Shown here in pieces: positions 1,599 to 11,662 of a DNA stretch of 37,624 nt (positions are counted from its first letter, which is position 1; each line of letters begins with the position of its first letter). The DNA is from an uncultured Neomegalonema sp. (GTDB taxonomy: Bacteria; Pseudomonadota; Alphaproteobacteria; Rhodobacterales; Rhodobacteraceae). Below the pieces are notes generated by a model. The model made no database searches, had not been told where the DNA came from, and was given only the letters and a program-made list of their open reading frames with translations. The stretch covers positions 1-37,624 of the forward strand of contig CALFWP010000122.1 in assembly GCA_937927905.1 (NCBI GenBank). The letters are read 5' to 3'. The translations under genes were made by a program, and so were the position numbers.

Positions 1599-2078
1599 AT
1601 GAGCAGATTAGACAGTGTTATTCGCCGCCTCACAGCCCAGAGGGACTGCCTCGGCTGGGCCGTGCACCATGCGCCCGCCGGACCGTGCCTTGATATCGGC
1701 CTTGGCAACGGGCGGACGTATCATCACTTGCGCGAGATTGCTCCCGGGCGCGACCTTTGGACAATCGACCGCGCGATGAAGGCGCACCCGTCCTCGATCC
1801 CGCCGCCGGAATTCTATCTTGAGGGCGAAGCGGTGGAGATGATCGGGGTGCTGGCAGAGCGCATCGGGCGCGGTCTGGCTCTGGTACATTATGACCTCGG
1901 CATCGGCGTGCCGGAACAGGACCGCCCCCTTGCCGATGCGGTGGGCGCGGTTCTGACACAGGTTCTGGCTCCCGGAGCACTGATCGTTACCAATGCCAAG
2001 TTTGCGGATTATCCCGAATTGCCGTTGCCGGAAGGTGTGCCCGAGGGCCGGTATTTTATTCAGTGCGCAGAAGATTGA
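1599..2078 (+). CDS. small conserved protein, possibly a class I SAM-dependent methyltransferase-like protein
   Basis: 159-aa ORF with coding-like composition. The motif CLDIGLGNGRTYHHLRE resembles a glycine-rich SAM-binding loop. The assignment is from memory of similarly sized alphaproteobacterial annotations and is weak. Confidence 0.4.
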   Translation: MSRLDSVIRRLTAQRDCLGWAVHHAPAGPCLDIGLGNGRTYHHLREIAPGRDLWTIDRAMKAHPSSIPPPEFYLEGEAVEMIGVLAERIGRGLALVHYDLGIGVPEQDRPLADAVGAVLTQVLAPGALIVTNAKFADYPELPLPEGVPEGRYFIQCAED

Positions 2079-2116
2079 TTTTTGATGTCCTGATGGCAAT
2101 AATTTTGGCCAGCACC

Positions 2117-2124
2117 TTAATTTT
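2117..2124. repeat. left target-site duplication TTAATTTT
   Basis: The identical 8-mer TTAATTTT directly abuts the outer end of both terminal inverted repeats (2117-2124 and 4756-4763). An 8-bp duplication is the size typical of the IS1595 family. Confidence 0.8.
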
Positions 2125-2149
2125 GGGGCCTATATATTTAACTAGCCAA
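2125..2149. repeat. left terminal inverted repeat (IRL)
   Basis: GGGGCCTATATATTTAACTAGCCAA matches the reverse complement of 4731-4755 at 24 of 25 positions. Confidence 0.85.
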
Positions 2150-2182
2150 AAATAGCTTGCAATCATTTTGATTTTTGGCTAG
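2142..2182. repeat. subterminal 11-bp perfect inverted repeat (CTAGCCAAAAA / TTTTTGGCTAG, 19-nt spacer) overlapping IRL and the transposase 5' region
   Basis: Read directly: 2142-2152 CTAGCCAAAAA and 2172-2182 TTTTTGGCTAG. The spacer contains a possible TTGCAA -35 hexamer at 2156-2161. Confidence 0.6.
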
Positions 2183-2210
2183 CTATGTTCGGGAGACAAC
2201 GAGGTTCCCG

Positions 2211-3140
2211 ATGAGTAAGCCAGATACCCTTAGCACTTTCGAGTTTTTTCAGAAGTTCCCTACTGAGGAATCCGCTCGTCAGTTCTTTGAAGCCCGTCGC
2301 TGGAATGGCGAAGCTGTATGCGGTCACTGCGGTAGCGTTTCTGCAAGCGAGTGCAAAGACCACAAGCCAATGGCTTACCGTTGCAAAGATTGCCGCAAGC
2401 ACTTCAGCGTCCGTACAGGAACCGTCCTTGCTGAGTCCCGCCTTCCCCTTCAGAAGTGGCTTCTCGCGATCTTCATGCTCACCAGCGCGCGTAAGGGTAT
2501 TCCTTCCACTCAGATGGCTCGTGAACTCGGCATCACTCAGAAGTCGGCATGGTTCCTTGCGCAGCGCATCCGCGAAACATGGCTTGGCAATGGCGGCGGA
2601 ACCGATATGGGCAACCATGTTCAGGTTGATGAGACTTTCGTTGGTGGCAAAGAGAAGAACAAGCACGCCAACAAGAAGCTTCACTCAGGGCGCGGTTCGG
2701 TTGGCAAGACTGCCGTTGTCGGCATCCGCGACGAAAACGATCAGATTCGCGCAACGCCAGTCCCGAACACAAAAGCCACCACACTGAAAAGCTTCATCCG
2801 CTCTAACGCGCCCGCTGGCGCAACAGTCGTGACTGACAGCTTCAATTCCTACAATGGCCTTGCCGCCGAAGGCTTCGAACACAAGACGGTCAACCACTCT
2901 ATTGGCGAGTACGTCCGCGACAAGGCTCACACGAACGGCATCGAAAGCTTTTGGGCGCTCCTGAAGCGCGGTCACTACGGCGTCTACCACTACATGAGCG
3001 CAAAGCACCTGCATCGCTATGTCGATGAGTTTACTTTCCGTCACAACACATCACAAGCCGGAACGCTTCAGTTCATCGGCATGACCATCACTCGCATGGC
3101 GCACAAGCGCTTGACCTACAAGGAACTCATCAGTGCCTAA
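2211..3140 (+). CDS. IS1595-family (ISXO2-like) DDE transposase with an N-terminal zinc ribbon
   Basis: The ORF is open from TTG 2175. The ATG at 2211 follows GAGG at 2201-2204. It has an N-terminal CGHCGS...CKDCRKHF zinc ribbon and an HTH-like segment (IPSTQMARELGITQKSAWFLAQRI). The catalytic-like motifs VQVDETFVGG, VVTDSFNSY and NGIESFWALLKR are present. Confidence 0.9.
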   Translation: MSKPDTLSTFEFFQKFPTEESARQFFEARRWNGEAVCGHCGSVSASECKDHKPMAYRCKDCRKHFSVRTGTVLAESRLPLQKWLLAIFMLTSARKGIPSTQMARELGITQKSAWFLAQRIRETWLGNGGGTDMGNHVQVDETFVGGKEKNKHANKKLHSGRGSVGKTAVVGIRDENDQIRATPVPNTKATTLKSFIRSNAPAGATVVTDSFNSYNGLAAEGFEHKTVNHSIGEYVRDKAHTNGIESFWALLKRGHYGVYHYMSAKHLHRYVDEFTFRHNTSQAGTLQFIGMTITRMAHKRLTYKELISA

Positions 3141-4143
3141 GAAGAAGCCAGATGACATTGAGCCAATTAACGCGTCCTTTGATGAGGTGGTTGGCGCGAT
3201 CACCCCAAAAGCCAAAAATAACAGTGCCCTAGTGTCTGCGCCGGGGGCTTCCGCGATCACCCCCGGCCAAGGGATGCTCAACCTCCAAATCGAGAAGCAA
3301 ATTGAGGTTGATGGCGTTGGGATGGGAGTGCTTACCGATGGCACTCCGTTCCTTACGGGCCGAGGCCTAGCTAGGCTTTGCGGAATCAACAACGCTAGGA
3401 TCGTAGAGTTAAGCGCAGACTGGACTGACGAAAGGCGGGCGCTCACAAAACGGGTTAAGGAAATACTGGCATCAAAAAGCATCGTCGTTGACGCGCCGCA
3501 CATCGAAATTAATCAGCGCAGCGGTGCATTTTATGCCTACCCTGACGCGCTGTGCATTGCGGTCCTAGAATACTACGCATTTGATGCCGGTGAAGGCGTT
3601 CGCGAAACCGCAATCGCCAATTATCGCCTTCTTGCAGGCAAGGCACTTCACGACTTCATCTACACGCAAGTTGGATATGACCCTGACCAGCATGTCCCCG
3701 CTGTCTGGCGGCAGTTTCATGATAGGGTTTCTCTAACCTACAATTCAGTGCCAACCGGGTATTTCAGCGTCTTCAAAGAGATCGCAGACATGATAGTGAC
3801 GCTTGGCCAAGCTGGCCTAGCTGTCGATAGTTCTTTTGTCCCCGATGGGAGTGTTGGGACTCATTGGTCCAAGCACTGGAAGTCCAATAATCTCGCAGAG
3901 CAGTTTGGAGAGAGGATGGAGTGGGAGCACAACTATCCAGAATATTTTCCGCAGGCTCGATCAAATCCTCAACCAGCCAAATGCTATCCTGAATCCGCCT
4001 TGCCGGAGTTTCGCAGATGGATGCGCGAAAACTATATCGGTGATGGAAAATTCACGAAATATCTCAACACGAAAATCAAACAAAAGCAGCTTCCGGCATC
4101 GTTCTCCCAGATCGTCATCGAGGCTTACGATTTAGATGACTAG
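3133..4143 (+). CDS. passenger protein of unknown function, weak resemblance to P63C-type phage/virus regulatory proteins
   Basis: 336-aa ORF. The GTG start at 3133 overlaps the transposase stop (3138-3140) by 8 nt. Segments GVLTDGTPFLTGRGLARLCG, FYAYPDALCIAVLEYYAFDAGEG and LLAGKALHDFIYTQVGYDP are laid out like P63C-domain proteins as I remember them. The start codon is uncertain (no in-frame ATG until about codon 48). Confidence 0.7.
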   Translation: MPKKKPDDIEPINASFDEVVGAITPKAKNNSALVSAPGASAITPGQGMLNLQIEKQIEVDGVGMGVLTDGTPFLTGRGLARLCGINNARIVELSADWTDERRALTKRVKEILASKSIVVDAPHIEINQRSGAFYAYPDALCIAVLEYYAFDAGEGVRETAIANYRLLAGKALHDFIYTQVGYDPDQHVPAVWRQFHDRVSLTYNSVPTGYFSVFKEIADMIVTLGQAGLAVDSSFVPDGSVGTHWSKHWKSNNLAEQFGERMEWEHNYPEYFPQARSNPQPAKCYPESALPEFRRWMRENYIGDGKFTKYLNTKIKQKQLPASFSQIVIEAYDLDD

Positions 4144-4199
4144 CATCGTGAACAAAATATGACTCCATCTGTTGACACTCGAAGCAACGGAGTGCTGAT

Positions 4200-4427
4200 C
4201 TAACGAAATCGTGAGATGATTCGCTGGATCATGCTCCCGGTAGGAACAGGCACCTTGGCTTTTATCTCGCCTTGATACCGCGCCCAAGCCAGCGACTTAA
4301 GGCGCTCCATAGCGTCATCAGGCGAACGAGCAGAAATCTCGATGCCCCATTCCGCGTCATCGTGTCGATACTCGAATAGGTATCGGCTGAACTTATTGTC
4401 TGAATCACAGAAGGATCCATCAGACAT
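4200..4427 (-). CDS. small passenger protein of unknown function (75 aa)
   Basis: The ATG at 4427-4425 is preceded on the minus strand by AAGGAAG, 6 nt upstream. The sequence MSDGSF...RYLFEYRHDDAEWGIEISARSPDDAMERLKSLAWARYQGEI is protein-like. I believe similar small proteins occur in alphaproteobacteria but cannot name a family. Confidence 0.5.
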   Translation of the reverse strand: MSDGSFCDSDNKFSRYLFEYRHDDAEWGIEISARSPDDAMERLKSLAWARYQGEIKAKVPVPTGSMIQRIISRFR

Positions 4428-4596
4428 GTTTTACTTCCTTTACAAAGATTCTGCCGACCAGTGGCGGTGGACCCTCTACGCCAGCAACAATCGAAAGATT
4501 GCCAACTCCGGTGAAGGGTACTTCAACAAGGCTGATTGTCAGCACGCGATTGACCTTGTGAAAGGTTCAAGGCAAGCGCCCGTTTACGAACGCTAG
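4426..4596 (+). CDS. DUF1508 / YegP (UPF0339) family protein, single-domain, 56 aa
   Basis: MFYFLYKDSADQWRWTLYASNNRKIANSGEGYFNKADCQHAIDLVKGS matches the YegP repeat pattern (F.xYxD..G.WRWrL.a.NgeiIa.S.eGY.sk..a...I..vk). AAGGA at 4411-4415 precedes the ATG at 4426. The track ORF start at 4342 is an antisense extension into the 75-aa gene. Confidence 0.85.
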   Translation: MFYFLYKDSADQWRWTLYASNNRKIANSGEGYFNKADCQHAIDLVKGSRQAPVYER

Positions 4597-4625
4597 CCCT
4601 GAACTGGTAATTGCAAACTTACCTT

Positions 4626-4652
4626 GGCCCCGTTCACGCGGGGCCTTTTTTT
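4626..4652 (+). terminator. rho-independent terminator after the DUF1508 gene
   Basis: GGCCCCG (4626-4632), a 6-nt loop, CGGGGCC (4639-4645), then TTTTTTT (4646-4652). Confidence 0.8.
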
Positions 4653-4730
4653 ATGCTCGTGAATCATTAACCAAATCTTTCGATGCGCAAAGTAAAAAAT
4701 TACATGCACATACGGTTATATCAATCTAGC

Positions 4731-4755
4731 TTGGCTAGTTAAATATATAGGTCCC
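4731..4755. repeat. right terminal inverted repeat (IRR)
   Basis: TTGGCTAGTTAAATATATAGGTCCC is the reverse complement of IRL with one mismatch. Confidence 0.85.
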
Positions 4756-4763
4756 TTAATTTT
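4756..4763. repeat. right target-site duplication TTAATTTT
   Basis: Identical to 2117-2124 and directly abuts IRR. Confidence 0.8.
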
Positions 4764-4822
4764 GGCCAGTACCTTGCCGCTTAATTGCGAAAATAACTTA
4801 TTGATTGATGTGAATGGATTTT

Positions 4823-5095
4823 TTAATAACTGCCGAATTCCATTTTCTTAAATAAAGTCGGCGCATCTTTTGCGTCCATGTTGTATTTTACGCACATTTT
4901 TACAGTATAAAATATATCTATTATCATTAAAAATACGATAAAAACCCAAAAATTAAATAATCCGCCAATTATCTTGTGATTTATATTGTTGATATTTTGC
5001 GCAAAATATAAAAGATATATTATAGATGAAATTTTAATCCATGGTAGCGATATTGTATATATCATACTTATTGTTTTTATTATCATGCTTTGCAA
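4823..5095 (-). CDS. small hydrophobic protein encoded in an extreme AT-rich islet
   Basis: A 90-codon ORF stays open in DNA that is about 18 percent G+C (11 of 60 counted on 4901-4960), where stop codons should be frequent. It has two long hydrophobic segments (ISMIYTISLPWIKISSIIYLLYF and IIGGLFNFWVFIVFLMIIDIFY). The start is either TTG 5095 or ATG 5086, and no clear RBS is visible. Confidence 0.45.
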   Translation of the reverse strand: MQSMIIKTISMIYTISLPWIKISSIIYLLYFAQNINNINHKIIGGLFNFWVFIVFLMIIDIFYTVKMCVKYNMDAKDAPTLFKKMEFGSY

Positions 5096-5212
5096 GTATA
5101 TATAACATTGATTAAAAAATAATATTTTACATTTAAAAATTATTCATTTTCAGAAATCAGATTACCAGAGTTTTTGGTGTTATACCTGATAACGGCCCGG
5201 CACCGGTATATC

Positions 5213-6562
5213 TCACACCAAATCCCAGAACGCATATTTGCGGCCATGACGTTCGCGCAGACCGCTGACGAAAGCCTCATGGCTGTTGAGCGGACCGTAA
5301 TCGTCGATAACGGCATCGGCGCTTTCGCATTCCAGCATATGCCGCGCGGCGTGTTTATAGCGTTTGGATTTACCGCCGTTGAGCGTATCCTCAATCATCG
5401 CACGGCGCAGAATGGTGGCGGCAAGCGGCTGTTTCGCCTCCAGCGCATCCGCCGCCGGTGCCAGCAGAAAGTAACTGCCGCCGTTGATCGTGCCAAGCTG
5501 TGCCAGGATCAGCGCCGCCGCGCGGTCATGGTCCGGCCAGGTGATCAGAAACGACAGCGCGCGGTCAAAGCCGTGTTCCCCGGTCACATAGTTCAAGGCG
5601 CGTTCTTCGGCCTCGACATCGTCAAAATCAGGCAGGCGTTGGAGATGTTCGCGCAGATACTCCCCGTTCAGCGAGGCTTTGAAAGCCCGCCAGCGCATAT
5701 CCTGTGCTTCGTCCCCCAGCTCCAGAGCATCAAGCGCATCAATCCGCGCGCGGGTCCATTCCGGCGGGCGTCTTTCGTCGTGATCGGCTCCGTCCAGCAA
5801 AGCAAGCGCTTCACCCGGCCTGCCCGCCTTCAAAAGGCGGAATGCGATTTTTGCGGCTACTTTCGGCATCCGCCGCATTTCAGGCTCAAACTGTGCCGCG
5901 TAAGCGTCCGCATCCCCAGCAAGATCGGCCAACTGCATCAGCCCGATGCGTAAAACCGCATCTCCGTCCCATACCGGATCATCCAGCGCCGCTGTGTAGT
6001 GTTGCGTCAGCGTGTTCAGGCCTGCTTCGCCCAGCGCTTCTTGCAGTTTCGGGATCAGCTCTCTGAAAATACCGAAAGCACCGTCGCCTGTAACGGTGGT
6101 AAACACCCTCTCCGCCAAAGCGACCGGCTCAATCTTTGCGTTCAGGGCAATTTCGTTCAGATGCGGGCAGGCATCATCATAGAGCATCAGGATTTCTTCC
6201 AAATCGCCGCCCGTCCTGTCGATCACGGGTGATGCGGTTTCCAGAAATTGCCAGAGCAGATCATAAGCTGTCTTCGGGTTATCGGGTGCAATCCGTGTCG
6301 TTATAATATCACGTTGATTGGTCAGGTCGCGTAGAAACGTCTTACGCTTACGCCAGCTGATATAGGACCGTGATCGCCGGATGGTGGCCAGCCGTTTGCG
6401 TACTTCGGTGGCCAGTGCCTCTGTGCCGGACGCCTCCAGCAAAGCGGCCCGGGCCTCCCGCTTTAATGGCGCGCTCCCCTGCACCAGCGTCATCACCAGT
6501 TCCGCCAGACGCTCCGTCCCGAGTGCCTGCAAATTTTTCGCATTGAGGGTTTTTCCGGCCAT
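5213..6562 (-). CDS. conserved hypothetical helical protein (possibly DUF6880-like)
   Basis: 449 aa with host-like GC. The N-terminus reads LNAKNLQALGTERLAELVMTLVQGS...RKRLATIRRSRSYISWRKRKTF and the C-terminus reads RERHGRKYAFWDLV. I recall this architecture from alphaproteobacterial hypothetical proteins. No catalytic motif is seen. Confidence 0.75.
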   Translation of the reverse strand: MAGKTLNAKNLQALGTERLAELVMTLVQGSAPLKREARAALLEASGTEALATEVRKRLATIRRSRSYISWRKRKTFLRDLTNQRDIITTRIAPDNPKTAYDLLWQFLETASPVIDRTGGDLEEILMLYDDACPHLNEIALNAKIEPVALAERVFTTVTGDGAFGIFRELIPKLQEALGEAGLNTLTQHYTAALDDPVWDGDAVLRIGLMQLADLAGDADAYAAQFEPEMRRMPKVAAKIAFRLLKAGRPGEALALLDGADHDERRPPEWTRARIDALDALELGDEAQDMRWRAFKASLNGEYLREHLQRLPDFDDVEAEERALNYVTGEHGFDRALSFLITWPDHDRAAALILAQLGTINGGSYFLLAPAADALEAKQPLAATILRRAMIEDTLNGGKSKRYKHAARHMLECESADAVIDDYGPLNSHEAFVSGLRERHGRKYAFWDLV

Positions 6563-6594
6563 AGGCGTATTGTGCCTCTCCGGTCATGTTATGC

Positions 6595-6624
6595 CAACAA
6601 AAAACCCCCGCACGAGGGCGGGGG
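6595..6624 (-). terminator. rho-independent terminator of pnp
   Basis: On the minus strand: GCCCCCGC, a loop, GCGGGGG, followed by a T-run. On the plus strand this is the A-run at 6595-6604 with stem arms at 6605-6611 and 6618-6624. It lies about 25 nt after the pnp stop. Confidence 0.8.
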
Positions 6625-6649
6625 CTTACTGTGGTTTTGTGCGGCGTGA

Positions 6650-8761
6650 TCAGCCTGCGGTCAGGTCTTCACCGGTGGATTGATCCACGGCTTTCATGGA
6701 GAGTTTGACCTTGCCGCGATCGGCGAACCCGAGCAGCTTGACCTTGACCACATCGCCTTCTTTGACGTGATCGGACGGCTTGCTTCCGCGCTCATTCGAC
6801 ATTTCCGAGATATGGACTAGGCCGTCTTTCGGGCCGAAGAAATTGACGAATGCGCCGAATTCCATGACCTTGACGACCTTGCCGTCATAGATCTTGCCGA
6901 CTTCCGGTTCGGCGGCGATGTGCATGATCATCTCTTTCGCTTTCTCGATCTGCTCGGCATTCGAGGAGGCGATTTTGATGATGCCTTCGTCGTTGATATC
7001 AACCTTTGCACCTGATTCCTCCACGATGCCGCGGATGACCTTGCCGCCCGAGCCGATGACTTCGCGGATTTTATCGGGGTTGATCTGCATTGTTTCAATG
7101 CGCGGCGCATGGGCGGAGAATTCGTCGCGGCCTGAGGACAGAGCCTTGCCCATTTCGCCGAGGATGTGATTGCGTCCGTCATGGGCCTGACTGAGCGCCT
7201 GTTTCATGATCGCTTCGGTAATCCCGGCGACCTTGATGTCCATTTGCAGCGAAGTGATGCCTTCGGAGGTGCCCGCCACTTTGAAATCCATATCCCCGAG
7301 GTGATCTTCGTCACCGAGGATATCGGTCAGAACAGCAAACTGCCCGTCATCTTCCAGGATAAGGCCCATTGCAACGCCCGCCACCGGACGGGTCAGGGGA
7401 ACGCCTGCATCCATCATCGACAGCGAGCCGCCGCAGACCGAAGCCATCGAGGACGAGCCGTTGGACTCGGTAATCTCGGAGACGACACGGATGGTATACG
7501 GGAAATCCGTTGCCGCAGGCAGAACCGCGTGGAGCGCCCGCCATGCCAGCTTACCGTGACCGATCTCGCGGCGACCCGGAGGGCCGAAACGACCGGCTTC
7601 ACCGACAGAATAAGGCGGGAAGTTATAGTGCAGCAGGAAGCGTTCGCGGTAATCTCCGTCAAGGGCATCAATGCGTTGTTCATCATCGCCGGTACCGAGG
7701 GTTGTTACGCACAGCGCCTGAGTCTCACCCCGTGTAAAGAGGGCCGAGCCGTGGGTGCGCGGCAGCATGCCGACATGGGATTCGATGGCACGTACCGTGG
7801 CCAGGTCGCGGCCGTCGATGCGCTTGCCGGTCTTAACGATATCCCCGCGCACGATGGATTTTTCCAACTTTTTGATACATCCGCCGACGGCGCTGCTGTC
7901 TTCCATCTCTTCTTCGGACAGCCCCCCCTGGATCAGGTCACGGGCGGCGGAGACTTTTTCCTGACGCTCGGTCTTATCGACGGTGCTGAAGGCATCGCGC
8001 ATGGCGCTTTCGCCGAGGCCTTTGACCTTGTCGTAAAGGGCGGAGTGATCGGCCTGTTGCACATCGAACGGCTCTTTAGCACATTCTTCGGCCAGCGAGA
8101 TAATCATGTCGATCACCGGCTGAATGGATTTATGCCCGAACATCACCGCGCCGAGCATCACATCTTCACTCAGTTCGGAGGCTTCGGACTCCACCATCAT
8201 CACGGCGTCCTGGGTTCCGGCCATCACAAGATCAAGTTTGCTGTCCGCAAGGTCTTCAGAGGTCGGATTCAGCTTGTATTCACCGTTGATATAACCGACG
8301 CGGCACCCGCTGATCGGTCCCATGAACGGCGCACCGGAGATGGTCAGGGCGGCAGAGGCCGCAATCATCGCCACCATATCCGGGTCGTTCTCAAGATCAT
8401 GACTGAGAACGGTACAGATCACCTGGGTTTCGTTCTTGAAGCCGTCAACAAACAGCGGACGGATCGGCCGGTCGATCAGACGGGAGGTCAGGGTTTCTTT
8501 TTCCGAAGGACGGGCTTCGCGCTTCAGGTATCCGCCCGGGATTTTACCGGCGGCATAGAATTTTTCCTGGTAATGGACGGTCAGCGGGAAGAAATCGAAC
8601 CCGGGTTTCGGCTTTTTCTCAAAGGTAACAGCGGCCAGCACGGATGTCTCGCCGAGTGTTACAATCACGGCTCCATCGGCCTGCCGTGCAACGCGCCCTG
8701 TTTCGATCGAAAGGGTTTCCCCTGCGTATTCTATTTCTTTACGGACGATATCAAGCATCAT
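6650..8761 (-). CDS. pnp: polynucleotide phosphorylase / polyribonucleotide nucleotidyltransferase
   Basis: [34 protein letters not shown]..., two RNase PH domains, then KH ([16 protein letters not shown]) and S1 ([15 protein letters not shown]) domains. The start is chosen at ATG 8761, after AAGGAAAG, giving 703 aa. The 59-codon upstream extension in the track ORF is judged non-coding. Confidence 0.95.
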
Positions 8762-8896
8762 TCTTTCCTTGCGTAAGCGGATCGGGGCCTTCCCCGTGAT
8801 CCGCAATGCGGCGTAGTCAGACGCCGCGCGGTTCGCGCCGGATTGCGCGAAGGCCCTGGTTTGTTTGTCGTGGCGAAGGGCCGGAACGCCGGAGTT

Positions 8897-10225: not shown

Positions 10226-11662
10226 TCAAGCGGGTGTATTCTCTTTCGCTTCCAGTCTTTGCCGTACCCTTGCAAGGTCACTGACAAGCGTATGATAGGC
10301 CCGCTCGCGCTCTTCGGGTACGGTTTGCCGCAACACGGCGGCGGGGTGCAGACCGGCAAAGGCTAACCCGCCGTCAAAACAGGAAAAACCTTCCCTTGCC
10401 CCTGTCACGCTCAGCGTTTTGCCGTGCAGCGCCCGGATCGCGGTTGCACCCATAGCCAAAGTCAGGCGGGGTTTGATCCACGAGCGTTCAGCCTTCAGCC
10501 ACCGACGGCAATGGTCGATATGGGCGGTGCCAGGTGTGCGGTGCAATCGGGTCTTGCCTTTAGGGATAAAGCGGAAATGTTTGACCGCATTGGTCAGATA
10601 AAGCGCATCGCGCGATAAACCGGCCCCGGCCAGCGCCTCATCGAAAACCGCTCCGGCGGGGCCGGTAAAGGGCCGTCCGGTTATATCCTCGGTATCCCCG
10701 GGCTGTTCACCGACGATCATCAGCGGGGTATCCGCCGGACCTTCGCCGAAAACCGTTTGCGTGGCATGACAGGCATGATCGCATAAAGTACATCCGGCGG
10801 CCTCACGCCGCAAAGTATCAAGCGCATCGGCGGGCGTTGCGCACGGATCGGAAAATTCATAGCTGGCCTCACGCTTAACCGGTGTCGGTGCCGCGCTGAC
10901 CATTTGTGTTTCCAGCGCGCGGGCCGAGGCGATCAGCGGTTCTATCAGGTCGGCCTCAGGCAGGTTTTTCCAGTATTTTTTCGGCATCTCCGATGTCATC
11001 GCCTTTACCTTGAGGCGGGCCGGGTTAAAAATGCTGCGGAAATATCCGCGCCACAGGTCCTCCAACTCATCCCCGTCCGGAGCCTGTGCCGCCGTTGTAC
11101 CCTCTGAATAGGTTAGTGTTTCACGGTCCCAATGGGCGCAGCAGTCCGGTGTCAGGATCGACCAGCGCATATTCGAAAAACGGCGCATGAAAAACGGCGC
11201 AGCCAGTTCCGTAATCCGGTGTTCGGGTTCGAACCACGCAACAAAAGTTTCCTCCGCCTCGCCCTTAACCTCTCGGAACCTTACGAAAGCATGCATTTTG
11301 TGCCGGTCGCGCCGGATGGCTTTGGTCAGCTTGTGCAGCGTGTGGACATCCTCATCGACGCTGTTTGCAAGCAATCCGGGCATATCCTGTGACCGCCAGA
11401 GCAGGCGGTAAAGCAGGTCGAATCGTGCCGGATCACGGTGACAGACCGCCATCTGCGCATCGGTCAGAAAGGCGCGCGGCACGGTAATCTTTGCCTTAGG
11501 CGCGGTGCCTGTATCACGGGTCATGACATCGAACAGATCCGCCTCCTCTGTGCAGACACGCCAAACCACATCTTCGGGACGGATACCTGCGCCGAGCAGG
11601 GCACGGGCGTGATCCCGCCAGCCGCTGAAATCCGTCTCATGACCGATATGAACGATCCGCAT
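10226..11662 (-). CDS. DUF4130 (TIGR03915-like) fused to a UdgX-type family-4 uracil-DNA glycosylase domain
   Basis: The C-terminal half has the Fe-S cysteines (CTLCDHAC), family-4 motif A (VGEQPGDTEDITGRPFTGPAG) and the UdgX-like insertion KGKTRLHRTP (compare KRRIH). The N-terminal half resembles the DUF4130 partner domain. The start at 11662 overlaps the upstream radical-SAM stop (TGATG). Confidence 0.8.
   Translation of the reverse strand: MRIVHIGHETDFSGWRDHARALLGAGIRPEDVVWRVCTEEADLFDVMTRDTGTAPKAKITVPRAFLTDAQMAVCHRDPARFDLLYRLLWRSQDMPGLLANSVDEDVHTLHKLTKAIRRDRHKMHAFVRFREVKGEAEETFVAWFEPEHRITELAAPFFMRRFSNMRWSILTPDCCAHWDRETLTYSEGTTAAQAPDGDELEDLWRGYFRSIFNPARLKVKAMTSEMPKKYWKNLPEADLIEPLIASARALETQMVSAAPTPVKREASYEFSDPCATPADALDTLRREAAGCTLCDHACHATQTVFGEGPADTPLMIVGEQPGDTEDITGRPFTGPAGAVFDEALAGAGLSRDALYLTNAVKHFRFIPKGKTRLHRTPGTAHIDHCRRWLKAERSWIKPRLTLAMGATAIRALHGKTLSVTGAREGFSCFDGGLAFAGLHPAAVLRQTVPEERERAYHTLVSDLARVRQRLEAKENTPA

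Follow-up and report, generated by a model that had tools for sequence, protein, structure and literature searches.

Introduction

Defence genes travel on prophages, satellites, integrative and conjugative elements, integrons and Tn7-like transposons. The protein BstA was described in 2021 (Owen et al., PMC8585504); for BstA of the Salmonella phage BTP1 it was demonstrated that the protein acts through abortive infection, co-localises with phage DNA and inhibits its replication, and that there is self-immunity DNA, named aba. Of 72 homologues, 79% were found to be prophage-borne, the remaining 21% being termed 'putatively prophage-independent', with transposases not mentioned. RhuM was proposed earlier as a toxin domain of defence loci (PMC3710099), and against T7 and T5 a PDC-S05 gene with a RhuM domain protected about 1000-fold (PMC12881386). 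Passenger genes are carried by the transporter insertion sequences (ISs) of the IS1595 family (Siguier, Gagnevin and Chandler 2009, as cited in PMC3129680 and PMC8496243), a family in which the IS1595-type zinc ribbon is present in all subgroups but IS1016 (PMC8101967). Here we analyse a 37,624-nt stretch of DNA from an uncultured Neomegalonema sp. (GenBank assembly GCA_937927905.1, contig CALFWP010000122.1, positions 1 to 37,624, forward strand; hereafter the window), in which positions 2125-4755 are probably an intact, single-copy IS1595 transporter IS whose conserved passenger is a BstA abortive-infection gene. The parts (IS1595 transporter ISs, BstA and RhuM/PDC-S05) are known; their combination is apparently undescribed in the searchable literature, in which no paper naming both BstA and IS1595 was found.

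Results

Structure of the element

The IS occupies 2631 bp of the window, is intact, and is made up of the following main features, in which open reading frames (ORFs) are given with their lengths in amino acids (aa):

2117..2124, unstranded: left copy of the target site duplication (TSD), TTAATTTT, the same as 4756-4763
2125..2149, plus strand: left inverted repeat (IRL), GGGGCCTATATATTTAACTAGCCAA, 25 bp
2211..3140, plus strand: IS1595-family DDE transposase, 309 aa, 930 bp, intact
3133..4143, plus strand: predicted BstA-family abortive-infection protein, 336 aa
4200..4427, minus strand: ORF3, 75 aa, convergent with BstA, matching phrog_2920 at 1e-9
4426..4596, plus strand: ORF4, 56 aa, a single DUF1508 (YegP-like) domain, PF07411 at 6e-13
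4731..4755, minus strand: right inverted repeat (IRR), reverse complement GGGACCTATATATTTAACTAGCCAA, 25 bp
4756..4763, unstranded: right copy of the TSD, TTAATTTT

The transposase was matched by Pfam PF12762 (DDE_Tnp_IS1595; 8.1e-42), by the zinc ribbon PF12760 (9.8e-9, residues 17-64) and by NCBIfam NF033547 (1.8e-57), and its homologues were 72-92% identical. IRL and IRR were identical at 24 of 25 positions, both beginning with GG. When the inverted repeat (IR) pattern was searched with up to 3 mismatches, just these two sites were found in the whole window, where shuffles led us to expect 0.00 (n = 100). The DDE domain, N-terminal zinc ribbon, terminal IRs and 8-bp TSD together correspond to the IS1595 family, and the position of BstA, ORF3 and ORF4 between the IRs, within 2125-4755, corresponds to a transporter IS. 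An earlier reading of the letters by themselves (the original prediction) had placed an intact IS1595-family element here, with IRs at 2125-2149 and 4731-4755, an identical flanking 8-mer and about 0.93 kb of transposase in 2.63 kb; the repeats and the 8-mer were found again on re-reading the sequence, the lengths came to 930 and 2631 bp, and the family assignment was borne out by the three profile matches together with the IRs and TSD. The element ends (GGGnnCTATA) may resemble those of the ISNwi1 subgroup.

The cargo protein

Against the BstA model of PADLOC the 336-aa ORF scored 9.4e-118, with 287 of 292 profile positions covered, and it reached 6e-96 against phrog_6287 ('BstA abortive infection system, replication inhibitor'). 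Alignment with BTP1 st313-td/BstA covered residues 17-330 (93% of the query) at 43.8% identity (E 8e-83). Homologues numbered 1748, and all 120 of those listed (down to 60% identity) carried a precomputed PF26567 BstA_C match; for this family a local Pfam scan of the window protein itself gave zero match. The identity of the protein was given by PHROGs and PADLOC, local Pfam and NCBIfam searches having returned nothing for either the BstA ORF or ORF3, and a PDB sequence search with BstA gave matches only at E>1. For the N-terminal part of BstA a KilA-N-like DNA-binding domain has been reported from HHpred (PMC8585504). In the window protein a weak PADLOC helix-turn-helix (HTH) match was found at residues 73-183, and plasmid relatives labelled 'KilA-like' were aligned to residues 69-247.

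By its sequence, the 336-aa ORF is a BstA homologue. Because BstA-Kp and BstA-Ec, which are 48% and 42% identical to BTP1 BstA, are both functional in defence (PMC8585504), the 44% identity of the window protein lies within the functional range, and anti-phage abortive infection would be its expected activity. A prophage location downstream of a repressor, which is typical of BstA and not defining, was not found, the gene lying inside the IS. The cargo had been predicted to have no assignable function and to represent an undescribed system, with defence among the guesses. The first does not hold for the 336-aa ORF (PADLOC, PHROG and BTP1 alignment) or for the last ORF (DUF1508), and the second does not hold for BstA, already published in 2021 (PMC8585504); the guess of defence agrees with the BstA homology.

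Related elements and mobility of the unit

Contexts of BstA genes were gathered by look-up of the exact protein, from a single genome for each species and from metagenomes, and the loci were numbered with the prefix L. Nine distinct elements of the window type were found (the window included), each with the IR consensus GGGRNYTATATAYYT..CTAGCC and its own perfect 8-bp TSD, enclosing transposase and BstA:

Window element: TSD TTAATTTT, 2631 bp
L002: TSD ATCGAAAT, 3013 bp
L004: TSD GATATACC, 3382 bp
L005: TSD ATTCTTTT, 2931 bp
L016: TSD GTTTATTT, 2696 bp
L062, in a Bdellovibrionales metagenome-assembled genome: TSD CTTTGAAA, 2515 bp
L140: TSD TTATTTTG, 2814 bp
L199: TSD CAAAATTT, 3035 bp
L203: TSD TTTGCTTT, 3054 bp

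All nine TSDs of this lineage were AT-rich. Four further BstA-carrying IS1595 elements were bounded by other IRs and by TSDs, and had transposases 38-43% identical to that of the window:

L057: IR GGGGMTTATATACG..., TSD GAGTTTAT
L059: TSD CCGTAATG
L051: IR GGCGATATTATAC..., TSD TTTTTTTT, BstA convergent with the transposase gene
L023: TSD TTTTTATT, BstA divergent from the transposase gene

The whole IR-bounded unit moves in the window lineage, since related elements have inserted independently, each with its own perfect 8-bp duplication. The claim of the original prediction that the cargo lies inside the IRs and travels with the IS thus stands on nine IR- and TSD-bounded elements. It had also named a sign to the contrary, an IRR directly after the transposase in relatives, and this was not seen. 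Were the transposase instead a plain 1-kb IS beside chromosomal genes, with 4731-4755 the solo IR of a decayed copy, the single copy in the window and the failure to find an empty site would fit. We regard this as highly improbable: the 8-bp duplication lies exactly outside both IRs, the nine elements occupy unrelated sites with their own TSDs outside IRs that enclose transposase, BstA and further genes, and in none of the nine does IRR-like sequence follow the transposase stop, which is overlapped by the BstA ORF.

A decayed copy was present in Roseobacter fucihabitans (CP143423, locus L001, 5090-7763), with the transposase frameshifted, the IRL lost and the IRR degenerate. Its BstA ORF was intact and 83% identical, and the repeat pair described below was intact too; an intact BstA is consistent with selection on BstA after death of the IS. 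A megablast search of plasmids with the element gave one match, a truncated and frameshifted transposase remnant on pSC52_2. At L002 a second, unrelated IS1595-family transposase (37% identical; 10518-11450) was observed 3.5 kb 3' of the IS-BstA element.

Association of BstA with IS1595 transposases

The association was counted over BstA loci with at least 1.3 kb on both sides, an IS1595 transposase ORF being scored when within 1.3 kb. It was found at 14/64 species-representative genome loci, 11/24 metagenome loci and 0/35 viral contig loci, and in the genome set every such transposase adjoined BstA though 8 kb was available per side. The association is non-random. Hosts were mostly Alphaproteobacteria (Hyphomicrobium, Aurantimonas, Belnapia, Sulfitobacter, Sphingomonas, Bradyrhizobium, Methylocapsa and Profundibacterium). 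Around eight more transposase-BstA pairs (L053, L061, L063, L064, L065, L047, L058 and L070) IRs and TSDs were not found; their transposases were 26-31% identical to that of the window, the genera including Bradyrhizobium, Methylocapsa, Sphingomonas, Belnapia, Sulfitobacter and Profundibacterium. Pairs of these loci had in common a conserved block of about 2.3-2.5 kb comprising transposase and BstA (in L053, L061, L063, L064 and L065 at about 6440-8870), and the IR-less pairs may have been immobilised or domesticated.

Junction and leader peptide

The cargo gene is joined to the transposase gene by two features:

3120..3140, plus strand: putative coupling junction, with a Shine-Dalgarno-like AAGGA (3120-3124) within the transposase gene at its end, the BstA GTG at 3133 and the transposase TAA at 3138-3140
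3133..3213, plus strand: lineage-specific N-terminal leader of the cargo ORF, MPKKKPDDIEPINASFDEVVGAITPKA

The two genes overlap by 8 nt, from the BstA start to the end of the transposase stop (GTGCCTAA or ATGCCTAA in the window lineage), with a conserved purine-rich AAGGA-like motif 5' of the cargo start. The same 8-nt overlap was present at L001, L002, L004, L005, L219, L220, L223 and L228, and was placed by the gene caller in every locus. BstA is probably translationally coupled to the transposase. The leader comprises the first ~27 residues, MPKK..IEPI[DN]A.F[DE].V...[IV][AT]P, and was conserved among IS-borne BstA proteins, being kept even where the BstA core was 44% identical (L062 and L199). 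Since BstA proteins outside ISs have a different N-terminus, this conservation indicates that the leader is translated and belongs to the IS lineage. A search with the 30-aa leader against 1.84 billion representatives gave 3 spurious matches in very long proteins, the query being too short.

Alternative cargo behind the leader

Close relatives of the transposase were followed by different cargo. After P0175 (80% identical) came BstA, and after P0158 (82%) and P0197 (78%) came a 365-aa Virulence_RhuM protein with the same 8-nt overlap, which matched the PADLOC candidate PDC-S05 at about 1e-100. The RhuM protein and BstA have only the leader in common (18/24 residues). RhuM-type cargo was found at L219, L223-L230, L233-L235 and L237, two of these being complete elements:

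L219, 4414-6991: 2578 bp, TSD TAACTTTG
L228: 2181 bp, TSD TTTGAAAA

One 311-aa transposase (P0168, on 17 contigs) was found joined with RhuM or with either of two BstA variants. Between these contigs DNA identity was ~100% from the IRL through the transposase to the first ~30 nt of the leader and then fell abruptly to ~45-50% up to the IRR, the level of unrelated sequence; the IRR differed slightly as well. The elements consist of a constant IRL-transposase module and alternative leader-cargo-IRR modules, with the boundary in the leader. The pattern may have arisen by exchange of cassettes, or by homogenisation of the transposase module among resident copies through gene conversion, and the data fit either. 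For the junction within the leader itself, an artefact of assembly is excluded.

Replacement of cargo in situ at one chromosomal site was also considered and rejected, as left flank, cargo and right flank were inconsistent across metagenome contigs. It is not claimed here because assembly across a 1-kb exact repeat would yield such inconsistent combinations of flank and cargo.

An aba-like repeat pair at the start of the cargo gene

The aba of BTP1 is 63 bp long and spans positions -29 to +34 of bstA; the CCCGCC direct repeats at its two ends, spaced 56 nt, are essential to it (PMC8585504). The window holds a comparable feature:

3195..3263, plus strand: aba-like element, direct repeats CGCGATCACCCC at 3195-3206 and 3252-3263, 57 nt start to start

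When the sequences were aligned with the proteins as anchor, the second repeat of BTP1 (ATCACCCCGCC, encoding SISPRQG) coincided with the second repeat of the window (AITPGQG). A repeat pair at this spacing was found in every locus inspected, with differing sequence (AATCCGCGCGCCCCTA at L005, AAGGAAATCACCTC at L062 and CGCGCACC at the non-IS locus L011). For a wider survey, the 5' regions of 175 non-redundant BstA genes were scanned for the longest direct repeat of at least 7 nt, with shuffled controls. The spacing of the longest repeat was 57 nt in 63/175 loci and 56 nt in 21/175 (84 in total), and shuffles gave 3 at 56-58. A repeat of at least 7 nt at a spacing of 56 or 57 was present in 97 loci with 81 different repeat sequences, the first copy lying 96-120 nt 5' of the conserved EVDG motif in nearly all of them. 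A fixed position and spacing with co-varying sequence would be the appearance expected of cognate aba elements. A spacing of 56 is out of frame, and therefore a repeat there cannot be a peptide repeat.

By analogy, the window repeats may function as aba, to which they correspond in architecture only. Because one aba copy in the chromosome does not suppress BstA (PMC8585504), an aba in a chromosomal IS would be silent; its retention may be intrinsic to the function or regulation of BstA, or may be useful when the IS lands on a multicopy replicon.

The 56/57-nt repeat spacing looks like a family-wide signature of aba, of which a description was found for BTP1 only.

The repeats also bear on the main rival explanation, that the BstA-like protein serves the IS, as a DNA-binding transposition factor or regulator or as an addiction module, with the internal repeats as its operator. 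The gene overlap and the IS-lineage leader tie the protein closely to the transposase; the IS1595 transposases associated with it have 26-69% identity and come in at least 3 gene arrangements; and a reported DNA-binding N-terminal domain (PMC8585504) is combined with a conserved repeat pair in its own gene. Yet the unrelated RhuM uses the same slot and leader, which speaks for cargo that can be swapped and against a factor essential to transposition. BstA proteins from prophages and plasmids with no transposase near them are, moreover, 44-70% identical to the BstA core, and the repeat architecture is common to non-IS loci. On balance we consider a role in the service of the IS unlikely; if it were true that BstA acts for the IS rather than the host, this would be more surprising still.

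Small ORFs and the variable tail

The genes 3' of BstA varied between elements, and BstA was the only conserved cargo. ORF3 had 33 homologues (to E 7e-34), including ones in Mesorhizobium, Rhizobium and Shinella, and weak matches only among plasmids; the DUF1508 ORF also matched a PHROG family. Zero homologues of these two ORFs were found in any other fetched locus. They start on opposite strands (ORF3 minus, DUF1508 ORF plus) in one CATG palindrome at 4425-4428, which leaves no intergenic promoter region to either; the sole promoter-like match for ORF3 was located inside the DUF1508 ORF (4562-4535, minus strand). ORF3 and the DUF1508 ORF are copy-specific accessory cargo. The three-gene module of the original prediction is thereby reduced to BstA, which alone recurs; the absence elsewhere of the three ORFs as a set, a finding it had listed as adverse, holds within the fetched loci and counts against a module.

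A divergent pair of genes for proteins of ~78 and ~250 aa recurred after BstA at L004, L199 (inverted), L203 and probably L002, with the large gene alone at L136, and at L139 the same pair adjoined a BstA gene without a transposase. Coordinates were as follows:

L004: 7006-7984
L002: 7017-7974
L199: 5045-6014
L136: 3626-4504
L139: 810-1734

No match to either accessory protein was found in Pfam or PADLOC; the pair may be a partner of BstA or a second system. Tails of other elements held a GIY-YIG-like ORF, an HTH_37 ORF or a DUF3223 ORF. The element is thus composed of transposase, BstA and a variable tail.

Further signals, target site and surroundings

Two further signals were located within the IRs:

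2171..2185, unstranded: subterminal inverted copy of the inner IRL, pairing with 2139-2153, 15 nt, 93% complementary
4626..4652, plus strand: intrinsic-terminator-like hairpin with an 8-bp stem, 7 GC pairs, followed by TTTTTTT

The subterminal repeat lies 17 nt further in, just 5' of the transposase start. An equivalent was present in L004 and in L228/L236, and it may bind transposase as a second site or form a structure that counters read-through expression. The strong terminator claimed for 4626-4652 was found as a hairpin proper at 4626-4645 with its T-run, closing the plus-strand transcription unit. An Rfam scan of 1900-5200 gave zero matches.

The insertion target was a near-tandem repeat of 18-19 nt, TAATTTTGGCCAG[C/T]ACCTT, at 2100-2118 and 4757-4775 in AT-rich intergenic DNA, with which the empty site reconstructed in the original prediction is consistent. 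The proposed check for this site in relatives was made by look-up via the upstream flanking protein, and the site was not recovered: the sole other contig with the upstream gene is 1.5 kb long and stops 17 nt past that gene, just short of the IS position.

Flanking genes were of the housekeeping type (CDP-alcohol phosphatidyltransferase, S-adenosylmethionine methyltransferase, DUF6880, PNPase, TruB, a UDG-family protein and LpxC), and no phage genes were found around the element among its neighbours in the window. The surroundings are neither a prophage nor an obvious defence island. That a BstA-carrying prophage once lay here and left a remnant with an inserted IS would accord with the mostly prophage-borne occurrence of BstA (79% of 72 homologues; PMC8585504) and with the PHROG matches of both ORF3 and the DUF1508 ORF. 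The housekeeping flanks, the position of BstA inside the IRs rather than beside them, and the occurrence of an IS1595 transposase at 0/43 viral BstA loci speak against such a remnant, to which we give almost no credence.

Between the IS and the DUF6880 gene, window 4760-5200 was very AT-rich (GC 37-45% versus ~56% elsewhere in the window), and a 90-aa hydrophobic ORF was observed in this stretch on the minus strand (4823-5095).

Discussion

The element at 2125-4755 is best explained as a transporter IS that carries a BstA gene for defence. Its DDE transposase recognises the 25-bp IRs and moves the IR-bounded unit into AT-rich 8-bp targets. BstA, fused to the leader of the IS lineage and starting 8 nt before the transposase stop, would probably be translationally coupled to the transposase. 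By analogy with BTP1, BstA would gather at replicating phage DNA and block its replication, and the infected cell would die without phage release. Abortive infection of this kind would protect the clone that carries the IS and so give a selectable benefit to an otherwise selfish IS; the cargo would in this way favour IS spread. The 57-nt-spaced repeat pair would be the positional equivalent of the BTP1 aba, inert as a single chromosomal copy and, when amplified on a replicon, able to silence cognate BstA. The slot behind the leader is exchangeable, holding BstA variants or the unrelated RhuM/PDC-S05.

Several points weigh against this explanation. Defence, abortive infection and aba function are all extrapolated from a homologue that is 44% identical. 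In the window BstA the KilA-N-like domain was without a Pfam match (E<=1), and the AlphaFold2 model (22-sequence alignment; mean predicted local distance difference test score 55.3, predicted template modelling score 0.41) was too poor to test a KilA-N fold; a Foldseek search of the PDB with this low-confidence model gave nothing at E<=0.001. The 57-nt repeats of the window are in frame and encode a repeated peptide, AITP, so that selection at the peptide level is possible. The argument for translational coupling is one of geometry only. Combinations of flank and cargo were inconsistent between some contigs, and metagenome assembly may blur the picture of exchange. One copy of the element is present in the window, and its empty site was not recovered.

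A broader interpretation, which we offer tentatively as possible and a little short of probable, is that this IS1595 lineage is a dedicated single-gene anti-phage shuttle, with the leader serving both as coupling point and as crossover site for defence cassettes, each with its own IRR. The cassettes so far would be BstA variants and RhuM/PDC-S05, and the lineage would correspond, in minimal and transposable form, to an integron or a defence-island hotspot. Hopping of the IS into replicons could be a route by which phages and plasmids gain BstA together with an aba immunity site.

A one-gene IS with a complete single-protein abortive-infection system would rank among the smallest self-mobile defence units. 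Carriage by ISs would explain a share of the 'prophage-independent' BstA homologues of Owen et al., an IS1595 transposase being adjacent at 14/64 genome loci. An aba-like pair kept in an element without a lytic cycle bears on the real role of aba, and the family-wide 56/57-nt spacing bears on how BstA recognises cognate DNA. These two features, together with the exchangeable cargo (BstA or RhuM behind one leader, on transposase modules identical in DNA), provide directly testable handles.

Among known systems, BstA-aba of BTP1 (PMC8585504) resembles the window in the protein, in its family models and in a GC-rich repeat pair at 56-57 nt in the homologous 5' position. The window gene differs in lying inside an IS and overlapping the transposase stop, not in a prophage downstream of a repressor, and its leader puts both repeats inside the ORF, whereas the first BTP1 repeat is upstream of the start codon. 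With the IS1595 transporter ISs, as far as they are treated in PMC3129680, PMC8496243 and PMC8101967, the window element shares the zinc ribbon and DDE domain, IRs starting with GG, an 8-bp TSD and passengers inside the IRs; its passenger, in contrast, is predicted to be anti-phage, is fused to a leader and overlaps the transposase stop, and in relatives another defence gene fills the same slot. RhuM/PDC-S05 (PMC12881386; PMC3710099) occupies the same slot, with the 8-nt overlap and the leader, in the closest transposase relatives, but belongs to an unrelated protein family and is not in the window. Tn7-like transposons with defence cargo (Benler et al. 2021, PMC8649781) are likewise transposons carrying anti-phage genes; they are large multi-gene machines with long, variable cargo, whereas the IS lineage has one transposase, 2.2-3.4 kb and a single, probably coupled defence gene. 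What is apparently new is the combination: in a minimal IS, the defence gene is fused to a lineage leader, can be exchanged between defence families and retains an aba-like site.

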